A program made the position numbers and the translations under genes. Below are positions 9,345-41,014 of a stretch of DNA of 64,000 nt, piece by piece. Below the pieces are notes generated by a model. It was given only the letters and a program-made list of their open reading frames with translations. It did no database searches and had not been told where the DNA came from. Position 1 is the stretch's first letter, and every line of letters starts with the position of its first letter. This stretch comes from Candidatus Dojkabacteria bacterium (GTDB taxonomy: Bacteria; Patescibacteriota; Dojkabacteria; SC72; JAFGCJ01), in NCBI GenBank assembly GCA_016932785.1, contig JAFGCJ010000002.1:273777-337776 (forward strand), in the 5' to 3' direction.

Positions 9345-10865
9345 GTGGCAGAATATGTAATCGCACAACAGATAGATATTCGACCTGAAGCCCCTGTCTT
9401 TGTTATTGCAACAGAAACTCAACCCCTAGAAAGGCCAACTCTTCAAGAAAATCTCGAACAACTTCCCGAGACAGTACGGATAGAATTTTTCAGACAATTA
9501 AGAGAACTTGAAATTGGTCCTCAATGTCATGGTAATTGTCCATTTTGTTGCTGTGAAGACACCCCATATCCTGCAAGTTCACCCATTGCAGCCGAATATC
9601 TTCGCTTCCATGAAATAGATACAGCAATAAGAGAATTGGCCACTATAGATCATGAAACGGGAATATATCTTCCAAGCTTCTTTCTTGGAAGTGATGTACT
9701 GGAGTGGAAAGACCGCCAGTTAACATATCTCGACATACTAAAACTAATACACGATATATACGGACCTGAAGCACTGGCTTATAAATACATATCGACAAGA
9801 GTCCCCGAAGGAACGGAATATCTTGTGGGAGATATTCTTAGGCTGTGTGACGGTCTTCTTAGTTCTCTACGCAACAAAGGGTATGATTATCCCGCATTTA
9901 AATTTGCTATCTCACTCACAAACCACAATGCTGTAAGAATAGCAGGAATAGTTGATTCCCTGCTTTCTGAAGGCATCATCGGCCGAGATGGAATAACTCC
10001 TTCAGGATCCACAGCATTGATACTGAGAAATAGAAGACTTGCCACAAAATCTGACGATGGACTTTCCTCTGTCGCGCCTGAAATAATCGGTGTTATGGGA
10101 GGCCTGCTTGAACCACTAGACGAGCCTCTGATAGGAGGTTCCACGGAAATTCTTAGATTCCCCAATGCCACATTGAGCCTTGATCAGTTTGATCAAGAAG
10201 GGAGACTGGCAGGTCGAAGAATACGAAAAGTTAAGGACGATCGATTCTTCAAACTTACCGGTATTGCCGGAATAGCTGGATCACCTGTAGTAGGATCTGC
10301 CGTACTTCACGACGCCACAATCTGCAATATTATCGAAATGAGCCCTCTGACAAGACAAAGACGCCACGGAGTAAGAACCTACCCTATAAGATTTACAACA
10401 CCAGACGGAAGTATTTTCTACAGAGTACTGCGACGTAGCTCATTAGGTAACGGCTTAATTCCCCAGGTAACAGTTAGTATCTTCGATGAATCAGGTTCAT
10501 TGATCACTTACGGTCCATCAGGTCCATTTCTAAAGTTTATCCCCGAAGAAAATATACTCATGAAGCTATATCAAATCTATGTGAAATCATTTGCCAAGAA
10601 AACTGATGGAATCAGACACCCATCCCGTCATGAACTCGACTTTATACATAGTGCAATAGCAGAAATCCAGAACCCACACAGACCTATGCTAGCGGACTTT
10701 TACCCTACCCCCAAACGTAAAATGCTAAGACTCATGTCAAGAATTCTAAGTGAGGCGATATATCCCTTAGATCCAGACCATACCTCACCTCCTTTGTTAA
10801 CATCGACAGAACAACGCAACCGTATAGAACTTGAATCCATAGTTACGTCACTTTCAAAGCCCTAG
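9345..10865 (+). CDS. hypothetical protein with CxxxCxxC motif (possible divergent radical-SAM-like), G+C-rich
   Basis: 506-aa ORF with a GTG start. An extended -10 (TGcTATAAT, 9298-9306) lies upstream. GPQCHGNCPFCCCED contains C-x3-C-x2-C with an aromatic residue before the last Cys. Confidence 0.55.
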   Translation: MAEYVIAQQIDIRPEAPVFVIATETQPLERPTLQENLEQLPETVRIEFFRQLRELEIGPQCHGNCPFCCCEDTPYPASSPIAAEYLRFHEIDTAIRELATIDHETGIYLPSFFLGSDVLEWKDRQLTYLDILKLIHDIYGPEALAYKYISTRVPEGTEYLVGDILRLCDGLLSSLRNKGYDYPAFKFAISLTNHNAVRIAGIVDSLLSEGIIGRDGITPSGSTALILRNRRLATKSDDGLSSVAPEIIGVMGGLLEPLDEPLIGGSTEILRFPNATLSLDQFDQEGRLAGRRIRKVKDDRFFKLTGIAGIAGSPVVGSAVLHDATICNIIEMSPLTRQRRHGVRTYPIRFTTPDGSIFYRVLRRSSLGNGLIPQVTVSIFDESGSLITYGPSGPFLKFIPEENILMKLYQIYVKSFAKKTDGIRHPSRHELDFIHSAIAEIQNPHRPMLADFYPTPKRKMLRLMSRILSEAIYPLDPDHTSPPLLTSTEQRNRIELESIVTSLSKP

Positions 10866-33961: not shown

Positions 33962-35476
33962 ATGAACAACCACAAAAAAATCAAAAACAAACTAGACAAA
34001 CTTGGATTTAAGTACCAGACTATTGACCTTGCCACAGAGTCTTTGGATCTCGACGAACAGGTCCGCGCAGGGAATCTTAAATACAGCGAATGTGTTGGAA
34101 CACTTCTAATCAAAGACCAACGGGGTAATTACTATGCTTTCCTTAGAAGAGACGACAGAAAAATGGATGCCGAAAAGGTGAAAACGATTATTGGAAGCGA
34201 CTCATTTGATTTCTGTGATGACAAAGACCTTGAAAAAATAGGATTCGAATCAGGACTTCTTTCTCCAGTACTACTAAACGACGGCAAAAAACCAATCAAA
34301 GTATTTGTAGATCAAAATATCAAAAAGATGAAAGTCGTTAACTGTGGACCGGCAATTCCCGGTGCAACCCTCCGTCTCGATAAAGACGATCTCCTCAAGG
34401 CAGTTGGAGAATATGAATTTATAGATTTTACACAGCCTAACCCCCAGAGATCTGATGATCTTTTCTCCTCTGATAAGGTTGTTTACACCGCTGATACCCC
34501 AACAGGTCAGATGCATATCGGACATTACGTTGGAACACTAGAAAATCGGGTTAAGCTCCAAGATAGATTCAACTGTTTTTTCGGACTTGCCAACTATCAC
34601 TCATTTTCATATATGCAAAAAGGTGAGGGCCTCTATAAGAATCCAGATTTTATTCACGAAGTGACTCTACAGGTTGCCATGGATAATCTAGCGGTAGGAA
34701 TAAACCCCGAAAAGTGTACCTACTATATCGAATCAGATGTTCCTGAGACATGTGAACTTGCAATGCTCTTCAGCATGCTGGTATCACACAACCGCGCCCT
34801 AAGAAATCCGACCATTAAGGACGAAATTAAACTAAAAGGCATGGGAAATCAGTTCTCACTTGGATTCATCAACTATCCAATGCTCCAAGCAGCGGATATC
34901 CTTATATTTAAAGCCGAATTAATTCCTGTCGGCAAAGACCAGTTGCCCCATATTGAGCAATCGAGAGAAATAGCCCGAGACTTTAACGAGCTATATGGTG
35001 AGACATTCCCAATTCCAGAGGGTCTTGTAGGAAAGGTCGGAATGCTTCCAGGACTTGATAACAAAAAAATGAGCAAAAGTCTCGGAAATGCTATCGTATT
35101 CACTGATTCCGACGAAGAAATCAAAAAGAAAATAATGAGCATGTACACCGATCCTAACAGGATACATCCGACTGATCCTGGCAAGGTAAAAGACAACCCC
35201 GTATTTATATACCATGAAGCTTTCAATCCAGATAAGGAAGAAATTGAAGATTTGAAGGAACGCTATGAAACCGGAAAAGTCGGCGATGTGGAGGTAAAGG
35301 AGAAACTGGCAAATGCTATGATTAATTTCATCGCTCCAATTCGAGAAAGAAGAAAGAAATACGAGGATAATCCTGACCTTCTAAGAGAAATTCTATCAGA
35401 AGGCGGCAAAAAAGCTAGAAAAGAAGCAAAGAAAACCATGTCCGAAGTCAGAGAAAAGATGAAACTGGACTTCTAG
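33962..35476 (+). CDS. trpS: tryptophan--tRNA ligase with N-terminal YbaK/ProX-like (tRNA_edit-type) domain
   Basis: Residues ~1-165 follow the YbaK pattern (..CVGTLLIKD..YYAFLRRDDRKMD..GFESGLLSPVLL..VNCGPAIPGATLRL). The class Ic core has TPTGQMHIGHYVG (HIGH), PMLQAADIL, GKDQLPHIEQSREIARDFN and KKMSKS. The upstream T-box has a UGG specifier. Confidence 0.85.
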   Translation: MNNHKKIKNKLDKLGFKYQTIDLATESLDLDEQVRAGNLKYSECVGTLLIKDQRGNYYAFLRRDDRKMDAEKVKTIIGSDSFDFCDDKDLEKIGFESGLLSPVLLNDGKKPIKVFVDQNIKKMKVVNCGPAIPGATLRLDKDDLLKAVGEYEFIDFTQPNPQRSDDLFSSDKVVYTADTPTGQMHIGHYVGTLENRVKLQDRFNCFFGLANYHSFSYMQKGEGLYKNPDFIHEVTLQVAMDNLAVGINPEKCTYYIESDVPETCELAMLFSMLVSHNRALRNPTIKDEIKLKGMGNQFSLGFINYPMLQAADILIFKAELIPVGKDQLPHIEQSREIARDFNELYGETFPIPEGLVGKVGMLPGLDNKKMSKSLGNAIVFTDSDEEIKKKIMSMYTDPNRIHPTDPGKVKDNPVFIYHEAFNPDKEEIEDLKERYETGKVGDVEVKEKLANAMINFIAPIRERRKKYEDNPDLLREILSEGGKKARKEAKKTMSEVREKMKLDF

Positions 35477-35949
35477 ATTTTTATTAAAGAATTTTCGTAA
35501 TCCTTAACTCTCTTCGGTTTACCAGTTCGGCTAAGCTCTATCTCGTGGCCCTCTGCTTTTAATTTTGCCACATGAGCCTCAGTTCCTCCCGGATACTTAG
35601 GATTTAATTCTCCACCTGCTTTAAGTGTCCTCCAGTAAGGTGTAATTTCATCAATTTTCTTACCACGCTCTTCCATATCCTCTTCCGCTGCCTTAGCGAC
35701 AAGTCCGACAAAAATACCGGTAACCATGGGACAACAGAAATCGGCTTTATATTTTTTGGAAAAGTAATCACGTATCTCTTCCTGGGTTATAAGCTTCCCT
35801 TTTGGAACTTTCTTCATAAGTTCCTCATACTCCGGGGCTGGAGGAATTACCATCTTTCCATGCATCTTCCAATTTCCACGAGGTTCGACATCTTTAATCA
35901 TTAGCTCTGTCTTGGAATTGAGCATCTCACGAGCTGTTTTTCTTGCCAT
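35473..35949 (-). CDS. MGMT/Atl-like DNA-binding-domain family protein (tentative)
   Basis: 158 aa. VPKGKLITQEEIRDYF .. ITPYWRTLKAGGELNPKYPGG .. KLKAEGHEI resembles the iP.Gkv.ty..ia / vPwhRVv..G.l / L..EG pattern of the methylated-DNA-protein-Cys methyltransferase DNA-binding domain. No PCHR active-site Cys is seen. Confidence 0.4.
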   Translation of the reverse strand: MARKTAREMLNSKTELMIKDVEPRGNWKMHGKMVIPPAPEYEELMKKVPKGKLITQEEIRDYFSKKYKADFCCPMVTGIFVGLVAKAAEEDMEERGKKIDEITPYWRTLKAGGELNPKYPGGTEAHVAKLKAEGHEIELSRTGKPKRVKDYENSLIKI

Positions 35950-35983: not shown

Positions 35984-38173
35984 TTACAGATATTTCAGAA
36001 TTTTAGCCTTGTCCATGTCAACAAACTCAACATTATCCTTATCTCTCTTTTTCATCTCAACCTTATCTTCCTTAAGAGTTTTTTCACTGATAACTATTCT
36101 TAATGGAATACCAATCAAATCAGCATCAGCAAATTTCACTCCTGGTGAAACGTCCGACCTGTCATCCCAAAGAATTTCAACCCCAGATTCTGAAAGATCG
36201 TTATATAGTTTTTCTGATTCTTTTGTGATCTTCTTACCATCGCCAATAGAAACAAGAATCACAGAGAACGGAGCAATGCTCCTGGGCCACACTATTCCGT
36301 TCTCATCGTGATGCATTTCAACAACTGAAGCCATAGCACGTCCAACGCCAATCCCATAGGCTCCCATCCACATAGGTTTTTCCTTCCCATCCTTATCAAC
36401 AAAATAAGCCTTGTGAGGATTAGTGTAATAATGATCATATTTAAAGATATGTCCAACCTCAATTGACTTCTTCTCCTTTAAATAACCGTCCTTACATTTG
36501 GGACACTTCGCACCATCGTATGCCGAGGCAATATCGTCTATCTTTGAAACTTTGAAATCACGACCATAATTAACATTGAATGAATCTGTTGTCTTTTCTT
36601 TAAGTCCTCCAATGAGGTTTTTAGACATTTTTAGTGCAATATCTCCGACATAAATCACATTATCCCTACCCTCATCATGACCCCACGAGTGAACCCACCC
36701 ACTCTTTGTACCAATACTCGTAAGGTCCTCCTCATCAGCATAGTCAAGAACATCAATATCGTCGAACAGATTGGCAATCTTTGTAGCGTTAGCCTCGAGA
36801 TCTCCTCGTACAACGGCAATTATCAATCGCCCCTTTTTGTCTTTGAAAACAACATTCTTAAGAAAATGGGACTTTGGCTTCTTATAATGCTCCACATTTT
36901 CATCCATGGTACATACCCACTCAGGCTGCTCAATAATCTCAAAAGGTTTTTCTTCTTCATCTATGTTTACAGAATCCCTCACAAATTCTGCCTTCTCGAC
37001 GTTTGCTTTATAGCCACACCGGTCACACATGACAATCTTATCTCCTCCTGCACTAAACACCTTGTCCTCTCGAACATCTACGAAGTCTTTTACTTTGAGA
37101 TCCCGTCCAATATTCACATTCTTACGAAAGACTCTCTCCTTATGGGCACCGTCATAATAGTTCTTGTTATATTTAACAGACTCATCGATAATAAGCTCAA
37201 CTTTGCTATCCAGCCCTATCGGAGAAACATAACCAATAAACGATCCCAACTCATCAATCTCAGATTTTGTTGCAGGTCGTATAGTCTTGTACTTAAGCAG
37301 TCTTCGAAGCTTAATGAAGTCAATCCTGTAATCTCCACGTATCGTAATACATATGTACTTTTTCCCATCAACAACATAGACCATGTTCTTCAAAGTTTTT
37401 TCCGGATGTTGTGCATAGAATTTTAGGATCTTCTTATACTCCTTCTGGTTCTTCGACACATCCTCAACTTCCATTCGGAGTTCTTTCTCGTCTTCATCAA
37501 AATATAAATCCAATTCCTGAACTCTTTCAGGGGTAATTACCATAAATTCATGACTATAATCTCCTCCGAGCGCACCATTGTCGGCAATCACAGCCTCTGT
37601 CTTAAGCCCAACACGATTAAAAATCTTCTCGTAGGCCTTCCAGTATGCATCGTAGGTCTTCATAAAAGACTTTTCATCCCTCTCATAATTGTAAGCATCC
37701 TTCATCAAAAACTCTCGAACCCTTATTAGTCCTCCCCGGGGCCTCAACTCATCCCTGAACTTGGGAAGAAACTGATATACATTTATAGGAAGATCTTTAT
37801 AGCTCGGCTTTTCTGACTTTATAACTTCAGTCATAAGCGCTTCAGCTGTAGCACTCATTGCAAAGGTACGGCCAAAATGATCCTTAGCCACAATCATTTG
37901 TTCCCCAAATGCCTCATCACGGTTAGTAATTCTCCAAGGCTCAATAGGCTGCATTATAGGCAGTTCCATTCTCTGAGAACCAATGGCCTCCATCTCCTCA
38001 ACGATTATCTTAATAATCTTATCCTTAACTCGATAACCAAGCGGCATGAATGCATATCTCCCAGTAGCAACCTGCCGAATGAAACCTCCCCTATAAAGGA
38101 GTCTGTGACTTTCAGCCTGTGCATCAGATGGAACGGTCTTAGATGTTTTCAAAAAGTATTCAGTAAATTTCAT
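35984..38173 (-). CDS. proS: proline--tRNA ligase, bacterial type, with duplicated INS (YbaK-like) editing module
   Basis: Class II motifs (FRDELRPRGGLIRVREFLMKDAY; GAYGIGVGRAMASVVE) and a C-terminal anticodon-binding region. At 729 aa it is longer than the usual ~570 aa. It has two INS-like units (LKNMVYV..ITIRGDYRIDFIKL..YVSPIG..NVNIGRDLKV and LKNVVFK..AVVRGDLEANATKI..NVNYGRDFKV). Confidence 0.9.
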   Translation of the reverse strand: MKFTEYFLKTSKTVPSDAQAESHRLLYRGGFIRQVATGRYAFMPLGYRVKDKIIKIIVEEMEAIGSQRMELPIMQPIEPWRITNRDEAFGEQMIVAKDHFGRTFAMSATAEALMTEVIKSEKPSYKDLPINVYQFLPKFRDELRPRGGLIRVREFLMKDAYNYERDEKSFMKTYDAYWKAYEKIFNRVGLKTEAVIADNGALGGDYSHEFMVITPERVQELDLYFDEDEKELRMEVEDVSKNQKEYKKILKFYAQHPEKTLKNMVYVVDGKKYICITIRGDYRIDFIKLRRLLKYKTIRPATKSEIDELGSFIGYVSPIGLDSKVELIIDESVKYNKNYYDGAHKERVFRKNVNIGRDLKVKDFVDVREDKVFSAGGDKIVMCDRCGYKANVEKAEFVRDSVNIDEEEKPFEIIEQPEWVCTMDENVEHYKKPKSHFLKNVVFKDKKGRLIIAVVRGDLEANATKIANLFDDIDVLDYADEEDLTSIGTKSGWVHSWGHDEGRDNVIYVGDIALKMSKNLIGGLKEKTTDSFNVNYGRDFKVSKIDDIASAYDGAKCPKCKDGYLKEKKSIEVGHIFKYDHYYTNPHKAYFVDKDGKEKPMWMGAYGIGVGRAMASVVEMHHDENGIVWPRSIAPFSVILVSIGDGKKITKESEKLYNDLSESGVEILWDDRSDVSPGVKFADADLIGIPLRIVISEKTLKEDKVEMKKRDKDNVEFVDMDKAKILKYL

Positions 38174-38509: not shown

Positions 38510-38538
38510 ATTATATATTTTGATATCGATACTGTCAA
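38510..38538 (-). promoter_or_regulatory. consensus sigma70-type promoter of the proS leader
   Basis: Minus strand TTGACA (38538-38533), N17, TATAAT (38515-38510). It lies immediately after the stop of the upstream gene. Confidence 0.75.
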
Positions 38539-38544
38539 AAGGTC

Positions 38545-39207
38545 TTATTTGTAAAAAGCCATATTCATAAAGGTCTGCTCTGTCACTACGGCAAAATCAG
38601 GAGCATATTTTGGACGAACATGATCTGAAAATAAAACTTTATTTGGATCCCTGCGCACTACCTGATTCTGACCGGAAAATAGAAAATATTGAGGGCTCCC
38701 TGCAACACAACCAAGATCAGTCCAAATAAATTGAGAAGACGCATGTCCTCTTACTGAATCCCAGCTTTTACGAGAAAAGGTAAAGGCGGCTGAGGCAATT
38801 ACTCTTGAAATCATCCAGAAATTTGACTGGCCCATTTCCATAATCTTAAACTTTGCATTCTGACCAGGCCATCTATTTGACGAGATAATTTTAAATAGAT
38901 CAGGACAACCTGTTATAGCAGTAATTTCATGAACCGAAGCAAAGGCCGCTATTGGAATATTACTATCGGGTTCAGGCATACAAGACAGAAATTGTACATA
39001 CTTAGCATTTTCAAGAACGGGGTCACTTGCAGGACCACCATCCCACGCAACATCAATTCTTTCCCAATCCATTTTGCTGCACCAACTAATTACACCCCCT
39101 AATTCTTCAAAAACCCTTTCAGGATCTTCAAACGGGTTGCTCCAAACAAGACCCAACACAGGATCTTCACCTCTTTCCTGGATTTGATTAAGTTGCTCTG
39201 ACATCAC
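38545..39207 (-). CDS. hypothetical protein
   Basis: 220-aa ORF between tyrS and the proS leader. No family motif recognised. Confidence 0.55.
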   Translation of the reverse strand: MMSEQLNQIQERGEDPVLGLVWSNPFEDPERVFEELGGVISWCSKMDWERIDVAWDGGPASDPVLENAKYVQFLSCMPEPDSNIPIAAFASVHEITAITGCPDLFKIISSNRWPGQNAKFKIMEMGQSNFWMISRVIASAAFTFSRKSWDSVRGHASSQFIWTDLGCVAGSPQYFLFSGQNQVVRRDPNKVLFSDHVRPKYAPDFAVVTEQTFMNMAFYK

Positions 39208-39281: not shown

Positions 39282-40907
39282 CTATCTCATTAGGTTCTCC
39301 AGACGTGTAATCAAATCCGCCATACTCTTAGGTTCAAAATGCCTTCTGGCGGGTTCCAAAATCTTTACTACTGCTTCAGATACAGCTGTCTTTAGATCCA
39401 ACGGATGAAGCTTGCCTTCCTCAAACAGATTAAACATTTCCTGCTCAGATTCAAAATTGATATCTCCTCCATGTTTCTTTTCTCTTTTGACCTCTAGCTT
39501 TCCTAAAATAGGAAAAACCAAGTGCTTCGCCCAATCTAAAACGGGATTAAACTCAATCTCCCTTTCAGGACAGAAAGCTCCATTTATCTTCCTTCGTATC
39601 TCATCGACACTGTCATGGATAAACACACACGTATCAGGCTTAGATTTACTCATTTTCATCTCTGACCAAAGTTCTCTAAGCCTTGCCTTATCCTTAATCG
39701 GCCAAACTGGCGGCTTACCAAGACCAAGAATTAGGTGGTGATGAATTGCAACAGGCTTTATCTTATTCTTGCTTTCGTCCAATAATGGAGAGACCTCGAG
39801 TTTTTCAGCAACTTCGCGAGCTATAACATGTGCCTTCCTCTGATCCATACCCCCATGAGCAATATTTACACCAATATTAAAAATATCATTAACCTGCATC
39901 GGCGGATATACAAGCCAGGCAAAGCATTGATTCTCTCCCTCACGCCTACCCATAATCGTGGAACTCTTTACTACACGAGCCAGAGTCAGATTCTTGGAGA
40001 CATCAATAAACGATTGCCAGTACTTATCATTATTGTGATAAAACTCAGATCCAAGGATAAAATTCACTTTCAACGGATCAGCCCCGGCACACTTCAACGA
40101 TGCAATTAATGCTTCCTTAAAATATCCCACTGCAACTTCAGTTATCGTCTCAAGATCTCCATTTAGCTTTCCATTTATCCAGGCATGCCAATCTGCAAGC
40201 AAGATATTGCACTCAACACCGGCCTTGAGTAGATCCTTGATTTTAAGAGCAGTCATAAGTCCGCTCCCAATATGGAGTTTACCGGAAATTTCAAAACCAA
40301 TATAATGGCGAAGCTTAGTTTCTCCAACTATCAGCGATTCCAGATCCTTCTCCGTAAGACACTCTTCAAGATTTCCCGTTATTAAACTTTTCTTCTTTTC
40401 TTGGCTGAGAGAAAGACTCATCTCTATTTTCTCCTTATTACTTAATTTATCGGCCAATTGGGTCACTCTAACATTATGCAATTTACTCAGTGCTTCTTCA
40501 ACACTAAGGTTTATACCCTTAGCCAAATCCCCGGCTCCCATACTCCATCTATCCATATCCGCGGCTTCTTTATCAACCAATATTGGGATGTCAAGCAGGA
40601 AAGGATTTAAACACCCTGGCCGAAACTTAAAATTTTCCGCTAATGCTTGTTCGTCCAGAATATCCCATTTCCCGATGTTTTTCCTCAGAAGCTTCTGATC
40701 AATGCGTTGATCCCCCTTAAGCAGAACAGCAAAAAAGCCCTCAGATGTTTTCACAACTAAAGTCTTTATTGCAATTTGCGGATCATAATTCTTGTCCACT
40801 GAAGAATCGACCTTTCGAGCAGATATGGCCCTATCCGTAAAAGTAATTTCTTCAAAGTTCAGTCCTATTTTCTTCAATTTTCTGGCAACAGAATCAAATG
40901 TATGCAT
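39282..40907 (-). CDS. tyrS: tyrosine--tRNA ligase, archaeal/eukaryotic type, with N-terminal YbaK/ProX-like domain
   Basis: The core closely parallels M. jannaschii TyrRS from memory: HYIGFEISGKLHIGSG, LLADWHAWIN, YPPMQVNDIFNIGVNIAHGGMDQRKAHVIARE, KMSKSKPDTCVFIHDS and HGGDINFESEQEMFNLFEEGKLHPLDLKTAVSEAVVKILEPARR. The N-terminal ~160 aa follow the YbaK pattern (..IAIKTLVVK..FFAVLLKGDQRID..FRPGCLNPFLL..SMGAGDLAKGINLS). Confidence 0.88.
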   Translation of the reverse strand: MHTFDSVARKLKKIGLNFEEITFTDRAISARKVDSSVDKNYDPQIAIKTLVVKTSEGFFAVLLKGDQRIDQKLLRKNIGKWDILDEQALAENFKFRPGCLNPFLLDIPILVDKEAADMDRWSMGAGDLAKGINLSVEEALSKLHNVRVTQLADKLSNKEKIEMSLSLSQEKKKSLITGNLEECLTEKDLESLIVGETKLRHYIGFEISGKLHIGSGLMTALKIKDLLKAGVECNILLADWHAWINGKLNGDLETITEVAVGYFKEALIASLKCAGADPLKVNFILGSEFYHNNDKYWQSFIDVSKNLTLARVVKSSTIMGRREGENQCFAWLVYPPMQVNDIFNIGVNIAHGGMDQRKAHVIAREVAEKLEVSPLLDESKNKIKPVAIHHHLILGLGKPPVWPIKDKARLRELWSEMKMSKSKPDTCVFIHDSVDEIRRKINGAFCPEREIEFNPVLDWAKHLVFPILGKLEVKREKKHGGDINFESEQEMFNLFEEGKLHPLDLKTAVSEAVVKILEPARRHFEPKSMADLITRLENLMR

Positions 40908-40931: not shown

Positions 40932-41014
40932 TCCAGGGGGCAGGATTCGAACCTGCGAAGCCTTTCAGCGTTGGATTTACAGTCCAATGCATTTGACCAC
41001 TCTGCCACCCCTGG
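40932..41014 (-). tRNA. tRNA-Tyr (anticodon GUA), class II with long variable arm, no encoded CCA
   Basis: Minus strand: CCAGGGG-UG-GCA(GAGUGGUCAAA)UGC-A-UUGGA(CUGUAAA)UCCAA-CGCUGAAAGGCUUC-GCAGG(UUCGAAU)CCUGC-CCCCUGG-A. It has a 7-bp acceptor stem, the T-loop consensus and discriminator A. It ends 24 nt upstream of the tyrS ATG. Confidence 0.92.

Follow-up and report, generated by a model that had tools for sequence, protein, structure and literature searches.

Editing by prolyl-tRNA synthetase (ProRS) has so far been described, as far as we can tell, as the work of one INS domain in cis and of free-standing helpers in trans. In the 'triple-sieve' arrangement (PMC3973320, PMC6344894), INS clears Ala-tRNAPro and the free-standing YbaK protein clears Cys-tRNAPro. 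As the standard editing-defective form, the K279A variant of ProRS is used (PMC3973320). Within INS, H369 acts as the gatekeeper, the loss of which switches the domain from Ala-tRNAPro to Pro-tRNAPro hydrolysis, L266 tunes Ser against Ala, and a GXXXP/A loop is a signature for INS/ProXp-ala relatives; the signature of ProXp-ala itself consists of K45, H130 and GXXXP/A in C. crescentus numbering (bioRxiv 10.1101/2020.09.11.293571).

Here we describe a ProRS gene in a 64,000-nucleotide stretch of Candidatus Dojkabacteria DNA (assembly GCA_016932785.1, contig JAFGCJ010000002.1, positions 273,777 to 337,776 of the forward strand; this whole stretch is called the window, and genome-level context was read within these 64 kb). 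Between its class II motifs 2 and 3 the predicted enzyme carries two modules of the INS type. With somewhat better than even confidence, we read it as a working ProRS with two complete INS modules, the extra one not being a recent tandem copy, which edits in cis through two pockets. Full-text literature searches on ProRS editing and on INS/YbaK/ProXp architecture, made in a library that is incomplete, did not turn up any ProRS described as having two INS modules.

A bacterial-type synthetase with two INS-type modules

The 729-aa product scored 635.8 bits with the proline--tRNA ligase equivalog model NF006625 (cut-off 558) and 519 with TIGR00409 (cut-off 306.7), and Pfam detected tRNA-synt_2b (PF00587, 93.8 bits), HGTP_anticodon (PF03129, 61.6 bits) and two stretches of tRNA_edit (PF04073). 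Residues 1-214 align one to one with two solved ProRS, at residues 1-214 in 5znj (S. aureus) and at chain residues 9-221 in 5ucm (P. aeruginosa). The motif 2 residues R140, D141, E142, R146, R153, E154 and F155 are intact, as is motif 3 (G604..R612), and the residues of both motifs are those of the single-INS relatives. This Dojkabacteria (Patescibacteria) genome probably relies on the product as its working prolyl-tRNA synthetase. An identical database twin, from a Candidatus Dojkabacteria metagenome-assembled genome, is named 'hypothetical protein JW710_02235', and the names that NCBI gives to the double-INS family are 'hypothetical protein', 'aminoacyl--tRNA ligase-related protein' and 'YbaK/EbsC family protein'; with such labels, genomes carrying a double-INS ProRS may appear to be without a ProRS. 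The features of the gene and of its surroundings are collected in Table 1.

Table 1. Coordinates of the ProRS gene, its domains and key residues, neighbouring features, and genes of related loci (positions are those of the window unless a contig handle beginning with L is given)
Feature	Position	Strand	Remarks
ProRS coding sequence, bacterial-type class II, intact core	35984..38173	(-)	729 aa + stop; single uninterrupted open reading frame
Class II catalytic domain, N part (residues 1-214)	37532..38173	(-)	motifs 1 and 2; final strand SHEFMVIT
Unit 1, extra INS-type module (residues 215-373)	37055..37531	(-)	insertion without counterpart in single-INS relatives
K262, unit 1 equivalent of essential INS lysine, E. 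coli K279	37388..37390	(-)	HMMER alignment
GYVSP, unit 1 GXXXP loop (residues 314-318)	37220..37234	(-)	aligned to GSLGP of solved INS
F349, gatekeeper-histidine position of unit 1 (E. coli H369)	37127..37129	(-)	
Pre-INS hairpin SAGGDKIVMCDRCGYKANVEKAEF (residues 374-397)	36983..37054	(-)	first CxxC at 37016-37027; alignment to 5znj resumes here
Unit 2, resident INS at canonical position (residues 398-556)	36506..36982	(-)	aligned to INS of 5znj and 5ucm
K439, unit 2 equivalent of K279	36857..36859	(-)	aligned to K of EKTIKTL, 5ucm
GWVHSWGH, in place of GXXXP loop, 3-residue insertion (residues 492-499)	36677..36700	(-)	against 'G---SLGP' of 5znj
D530, gatekeeper-histidine position of unit 2	36584..36586	(-)	aligned to His of GYHLINVN and DKHYFGVN
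Class II catalytic domain, C part (residues 557-632)	36278..36505	(-)	motif 3 GAYGIGVGR and second CxxC; alignment to solved ProRS
Anticodon-binding domain (residues 633-729)	35987..36277	(-)	PF03129 at 638-723, 61.6 bits
TrpRS with N-terminal PF04073 domain	33962-35476	(+)	TIGR00233 276 bits (above cut-off); tRNA_edit ~165 aa, 68.5 bits
Promoter-like TTGACA-17-TATAAT (pattern match)	38510..38538	(-)	12/12 consensus matches; ~335 nt upstream of ProRS start
Archaeal-type TyrRS with N-terminal PF04073 domain	39282-40907	(-)	NF006330 404 bits; PF04073 60.8 bits
tRNA-Tyr(GTA)	40932-41014	(-)	directly upstream of TyrRS, same strand
Group B double-INS genes	L005 10001-12196; L007 5616-7757; L009 10001-12262; L010 10001-12268; L011 825-3065		also on L014 and L016
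Glycyl-radical enzyme genes	L005 13209-15629; L007 8719-11166; L010 13188-15608; L011 4057-6504	(-)	

A first-pass annotation, made from the sequence alone, had placed two collinear editing units at 36548-37402, that is at residues 258-542 of the ProRS, and all of the peptide strings that it quoted were found at the given residues of the 729-aa frame. Pfam and the fold model bore out two INS-type modules between motifs 2 and 3 of a bacterial-type ProRS. Scanned singly, unit 1 (residues 215-373) and unit 2 (residues 398-556), each of 159 aa, matched PF04073 with 67.1 bits (E 2e-18) and 48.5 bits (E 1.2e-12), respectively, at a gathering cut-off of 25.5 bits, indicating two tRNA_edit stretches rather than one beside a region of unrelated fold. 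The two units are 26% identical over 122 residues by BLASTP (E=3e-9), and a hidden Markov model (HMM) of unit 1, built from 18 homologues, matches unit 2 over nearly its full length (residues 402-548 against model positions 11-153; 41.6 bits, E 1.9e-12). An AlphaFold2 model of the whole protein, made from a 120-sequence alignment, reached a mean pLDDT of 94.5 and a pTM of 0.89, and the order of secondary-structure elements in it is the same in units 1 and 2. Superposition of the whole model on E. faecalis ProRS (2j3l) gave a TMt of 0.93 and a TMq of 0.73; the lower TMq is what one unmatched domain of ~160 residues would produce.

Alignments of solved bacterial ProRS cover residues 1-214 and 374-721 and leave residues 215-373 as a gap, and the nearest single-INS homologues (P0023, P0024 and P0026, 61-64% identical in the shared regions) show a clean gap exactly at 215-373. 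Given that the solved single-INS enzymes skip this segment, we concluded that unit 1 has been inserted and that the resident INS is unit 2. The insertion point lies one beta-hairpin before the resident INS, with the strand SHEFMVIT on one side and the GGDKIVMCDRCGY hairpin on the other. With its ~159 aa, the added module accounts for the 729-aa length of the protein, as had been proposed at first pass, but the duplication that the proposal invoked is unsupported as its origin. The description of each unit as followed by a CxxC-containing linker is literally correct; the two are not, however, a repeated linker, as both flank unit 2. The first, CDRC (residues 383-386), belongs to the hairpin that ordinarily precedes INS in single-INS enzymes, and the second, CPKC (residues 557-560; 36494-36505 (-)), to the strand after INS. 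In 120 sequences, single-INS relatives included, C383, C557 and C560 never vary and the conservation of C386 is at least 90%, and because of this conservation the four cysteines are taken as one scaffold element around unit 2, where they probably form a metal site.

Modelled alone (pLDDT 85), unit 1 found its best Foldseek matches in the INS domains of 2j3l (E. faecalis), 5znj (S. aureus) and 5ucm/8w8j (P. aeruginosa), with TMq of 0.69-0.77 and E of 1e-9 to 3e-7, and free-standing YbaK and ProX proteins ranked below them. Searched against the PDB, the unit 1 profile of 18 homologues matched the INS of 5znj/2j3l with E ~2e-14, YbaK (1dbu) with 2e-3 and ProXp-ala (5vxb) with 0.23. By profile and by predicted fold, unit 1 is an INS-type module. 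The loop GYVSPIG had raised the suspicion of a YbaK-type domain, and this candidate was rejected: both the profile and the fold searches place unit 1 with INS, PG(Y/F)xSP(I/V)G loops occur in many INS domains, and the YbaK model TIGR00011 gave only 37 bits at a cut-off of 153.25, which leaves unit 1 outside that family. Unit 1 and its free-standing relatives, described below, also fall outside ProXp-ala, in that the lysine and the loop are present and the histidine column holds F or Y.

Active-site columns were taken from ungapped parts of HMMER alignments to solved INS domains. K262 of unit 1 aligns to the lysine of EKTIKTL in P. aeruginosa ProRS (chain residue 287, native 279), and both K262 and its unit 2 equivalent K439 are present in every double-INS member tabulated. 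In most of the family the last position of the GYVSP loop holds P, A or S; two members have T or E there. The gatekeeper column, ungapped against GYHLINVN (5znj) and DKHYFGVN (5ucm), holds F in nearly all long forms, as in F349 here, and Y in two; at the positions of E. coli I263 and L266, unit 1 has Y246 and I249. In unit 2 the same two positions are M423 and N426, K439 and D530 are each invariant in the 120 aligned sequences, and across the residues of the GWVHSWGH loop G492 and W497 are invariant and V494, H495 and G498 at least 90% conserved; H499 is kept in all tabulated sequences except P0120, which has Y. Judged by the residues at the I263, L266 and H369 columns, both pockets are non-canonical, one hydrophobic and one polar.

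Unit 2 shares a mean identity of 52% with the INS of single-INS Patescibacteria ProRS, and its signature (K439, G492, H495, W497, H499 and D530) is invariant or nearly so in the single-INS ProRS of other Patescibacteria, among them Microgenomates, Shapirobacteria and WWE3. As the alignments have it, GWVHSWGH/D530 is a lineage-wide Patescibacteria variant of INS, independent of the second module. At first pass, unit 2 was said to have lost the G.(V/L).P(I/V)G loop, which was thought to suggest subfunctionalisation. The loop is indeed replaced, but not as a consequence of gaining a second module, because GWVHSWGH and D530 are (near-)invariant in single-INS Patescibacteria ProRS; a division of labour between the modules is plausible on other grounds. 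As a separate observation, the HxxxH motif and the Asp of this INS type (H495, H499 and D530) could form a candidate metal site.

Double-INS relatives and their gene neighbourhoods

Among the 120 best database clusters, the unit 1 HMM identified 31 long forms of 689-782 aa, all of them with both modules. P0121, the representative of a 50%-identity cluster, is a further double-INS protein, and the family comes to ~35 clusters at 90% identity. When the unit 1 profile was run exhaustively with HMMER against 1.84 billion representatives, the full-length matches came to only two 50% clusters, beside fragments above 1e-30. Among 185,579 species genomes, two loci with unit 1 were detected (in two species representatives), and a metagenome scan added a few more. 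The double-INS family is rare, and Patescibacteria ProRS mostly carry the GWVHSWGH-type INS alone.

The family comprises two groups. Group A (P0001-P0017) is labelled as Patescibacteria or Dojkabacteria, has Patescibacteria-like neighbourhoods and has the motif 2 and 3 residues of an ordinary ProRS. In group B (P0019-P0039 and P0121, with P0018 borderline) motifs 2 and 3 are degenerate, PF00587 scores 20-22 bits, below its threshold of 29.3, and some members are without ~40 N-terminal residues. Group B retains both lysines, both RGD and both N.N..RD motifs, the GWVHSWGH loop and the four cysteines. Mean pairwise identities in groups B and A were, respectively, 0.46 and 0.70 for the catalytic N part, 0.48 and 0.76 for the catalytic C part, 0.62 and 0.62 for unit 1, 0.71 and 0.71 for unit 2, and 0.61 and 0.53 for the anticodon-binding domain. 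The identities within group B therefore indicate that selection was kept on the INS modules and on anticodon binding while the synthetic site decayed, and relatives that have decayed and still keep both modules point to modules selected for their own sake. This retention is the strongest argument available for a function of both modules, and it suggests that group B proteins are ProRS-derived, tRNAPro-directed trans-editing factors. Apart from this family, P0124, P0131, P0134, P0137, P0149, P0155 and others are single-INS ProRS-like proteins of ~520-570 aa with a motif 2 that appears degenerate by eye; proteins of the P0124 type have no FRDE...R..REF, keep an INS that looks canonical and has the loop PGYASP(I/V)G, and may be further aminoacylation-dead ProRS paralogues.

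The contigs of group B are not Patescibacteria-like: they carry outer-membrane and amino-acid-catabolism genes and have a GC content of 46-58%. At four distinct loci (L005/6, L007/8/15, L010 and L011/14) the group B gene stands tail-to-tail with genes for a glycyl-radical enzyme (GRE) and its activase. At a fifth (L009) the GRE gene is ~9.5 kb away and the genes immediately upstream encode a solute:sodium symporter and an Xaa-Pro peptidase, and on L005 a proline-racemase-family gene and a symporter adjoin the GRE. HypD was considered as the identity of this enzyme and rejected. Its best NCBIfam model is that of HypD, yet with 771-787 bits at a cut-off of 1100; its PDB scores are tied with those of glycerol dehydratase; and all four distinct copies (4/4) have His for the essential D278 and Ser for E436 of the CXE motif. 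Relative to C. difficile HypD, residues H160, R156, S334, D339, F340, Y450 and T645 are kept (residue roles from PMC7077986), and the cysteine loop reads GCVSP, with C-V-S in place of CXE, a motif that is kept in all characterised GRE eliminases and isomerases (2026 review, PMC13450708). The enzyme beside group B is probably a GRE of an uncharacterised kind, with a proline-like molecule as its substrate.

Full-text searches of the same incomplete library returned no link between a ProRS paralogue and glycyl-radical enzymes. The association suggests that double-INS proteins handle tRNAPro mischarged with a proline analogue. A broader and tentative proposal, which we regard as possible without favouring it, is that double-INS proteins are an unrecognised branch of tRNAPro quality control directed against proline analogues and not only against Ala and Cys. 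Group B proteins would then be stand-alone trans-editing factors, guided by their anticodon domains, that clear tRNAPro mischarged with a proline-like compound in bacteria which import and ferment it. The member with an intact catalytic site would be the Dojkabacteria enzyme, with two-pocket editing in cis. The decayed relatives also suggest a new class of ProRS-derived trans-editing factor tied to the anaerobic metabolism of proline-like compounds.

Origin of the inserted module

Across 276 aligned INS segments, the mean identity of unit 1 was 24% to unit 2, 28% to the GWVHSWGH-type INS of single-INS enzymes and 30% to other INS, and reached 40% to P0122, a 149-aa protein. By neighbour-joining, unit 1 was monophyletic in 96/100 bootstraps and grouped with the free-standing reading frames P0122 and L018 in 99/100 and with unit 2 in 0/100. 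P0122 is a complete frame (L001, 976-1425 (+)) directly upstream of an archaeal/eukaryotic-type ProRS that has no INS, and the frame on L018 (about 9944-10396 (+)) lies directly downstream of an archaeal-type ProRS 48% identical to that of L001. In both of these ~150-aa frames the lysine and GXXXP are present and the gatekeeper histidine is absent. The simplest reading is that unit 1 and a self-contained INS-type trans-editing module share a recent ancestor. Unit 1 may have been captured from a free-standing module, or the two may go back to an old common origin, capture and excision both being possible.

The first-pass annotation had instead derived the second module from tandem duplication of the resident INS in situ, followed by divergence and subfunctionalisation, which in the light of these data we find doubtful. 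The two segments are of equal length, collinear and significantly similar, including their N-terminal linker, and both lie within one inter-motif region, as a duplication would have it. The trees, however, never join unit 1 to unit 2 and place it with the free-standing frames, and unit 1 is nearer to other INS domains than to unit 2. A copy of unit 2 would, moreover, have needed reversion from the GWVHSWGH/D530 signature to a GXXXP-type loop, and the CxxC 'linkers' are not duplicated elements.

Proposed two-pocket editing in cis, gene surroundings and known systems

In the reading that we prefer, a working ProRS with two-pocket editing in cis, both modules are most likely active deacylases with differing specificities. 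Near-cognate amino acids would be mischarged onto tRNAPro by the catalytic core, and the CCA end could go to one or the other of two hydrolytic pockets, each using its conserved lysine. Unit 1, with a hydrophobic pocket (Y246, I249 and F349) and GXXXP, would be the one most like the classical Ala-tRNAPro site; unit 2, with a polar pocket (M423, N426 and D530 plus H495/H499), would probably clear a different, more polar substrate. Both pockets in cis would thereby do the multi-sieve editing that is done elsewhere by INS and a trans factor (YbaK or ProXp). Two homologous pockets with non-canonical specificity residues on one synthetase are a natural experiment on the partitioning of editing specificity and on the choice of the CCA end between sites.

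Several points weigh against this reading. Neither module has the 'universal gatekeeper' histidine and unit 2 is also without GXXXP, so that there is no textbook INS site in the protein, and the modules may hydrolyse cognate Pro-tRNAPro. The pocket residues were assigned by sequence alignment and not from model coordinates. The trees that separate unit 1 from unit 2 are neighbour-joining trees of 125 columns of highly diverged sequences, and the set of INS domains used for comparison was partly picked by likeness to unit 1 and is a biased sample. An ancient duplication, followed by loss in the single-INS lineages, is a further account of the architecture, although we hold it for rather improbable, much as we do duplication in situ.

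Functional replacement appears unlikely. It would have the GWVHSWGH-type INS lose or change its Ala-tRNAPro activity and unit 1 restore it, leaving unit 2 as a relic or in a non-editing role. That unit 2 has neither GXXXP nor the histidine agrees with it, as do the higher PF04073 score of unit 1 (67 against 48 bits) and its more canonical loop. GWVHSWGH, D530 and K439 are, however, (near-)invariant both in the 120 sequences and in the decayed group B, pointing to strong selection on the pocket, and most Patescibacteria ProRS have an INS of this type alone.

It is more unlikely still that unit 1 is a non-catalytic appendage, that is an additional tRNA-binding or scaffolding domain made from the INS fold, with editing left to the resident INS. 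The gatekeeper histidine of unit 1 is replaced (F349), its T257-equivalent is variable, the P of GXXXP varies (mostly P/A/S), and inactive appended editing-like domains are generally known in other synthetases. Against this stands the (near-)invariance of the lysine, RGD, GXXXP/A and N.N..RD in proteins that are only 45% identical overall, and the nearest relatives of unit 1 stand alone beside an INS-less ProRS, which is typical of an active trans-editing factor. An assembly, frameshift or gene-calling artefact joining genes or repeating a segment, which the metagenome-assembled origin of the sequence might invite and nothing else speaks for, can practically be dismissed, as the reading frame is uninterrupted, the units are too different (26% identity) for a collapsed or expanded repeat, and >30 clusters of the same architecture, 45-78% identical, come from NCBI, JGI, ENA and Logan assemblies of independent samples.

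The surroundings of the ProRS gene contain further domains of the same superfamily, and four INS-superfamily domains lie on three synthetases (ProRS, TrpRS and TyrRS) inside 7 kb. The tRNA_edit domain of the convergent TrpRS shows a weak likeness to ProXp-ala/ProX (E ~3e-3) and, by eye, has Gly (ECVGTLLIK) at the catalytic lysine position of the superfamily. We know of no editing domain described on a bacterial TrpRS. The corresponding domain of TyrRS keeps the KTL lysine and has a GCLNP loop, and a search of the PDB gave no sequence match to it. Downstream of ProRS by 35 nt and on the same strand lies a 158-aa frame (35473-35949 (-)) that overlaps the stop of TrpRS by 4 nt; its sole family match is sub-threshold, to the MGMT DNA-binding domain (E 0.029). 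Upstream, the promoter-like site sits just past the stop of a 220-aa frame (38545-39207) that could not be annotated; the sigma-70 consensus scan that detected it is a pattern match only, and the total number of sites was not above the shuffled expectation. No Rfam leader RNA was found upstream of the ProRS gene.

Compared with the single-INS bacterial ProRS (E. coli; 2j3l, 5znj and 5ucm), the Dojkabacteria enzyme shares the class II core, the anticodon domain, an INS between motifs 2 and 3 and the essential lysine, and differs in the second 159-aa INS one hairpin earlier, in the absence of an H369-type histidine from both modules and in a resident INS with GWVHSWGH instead of GXXXP. As in the triple-sieve of ProRS and YbaK, there are two hydrolytic sites of the INS superfamily per synthetase, but here they are on one polypeptide, and the added site is INS-type and not YbaK-type. 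The likeness to ProXp-ala and other trans-editing proteins lies in the nearest relatives of unit 1, which are free-standing, ~150 aa long and beside an INS-less ProRS, the typical setting of ProXp-ala; unlike ProXp-ala, unit 1 and these frames have no signature histidine, and the unit 1 profile is far nearer to INS. Finally, the ProRS of eukaryotic parasites with an N-terminal YbaK-like domain (PDB 5xio) also carries an extra INS-superfamily domain in cis. That enzyme is of the archaeal/eukaryotic type, with one N-terminal domain and no internal INS, whereas the Dojkabacteria enzyme is of the bacterial type, with two internal INS modules.

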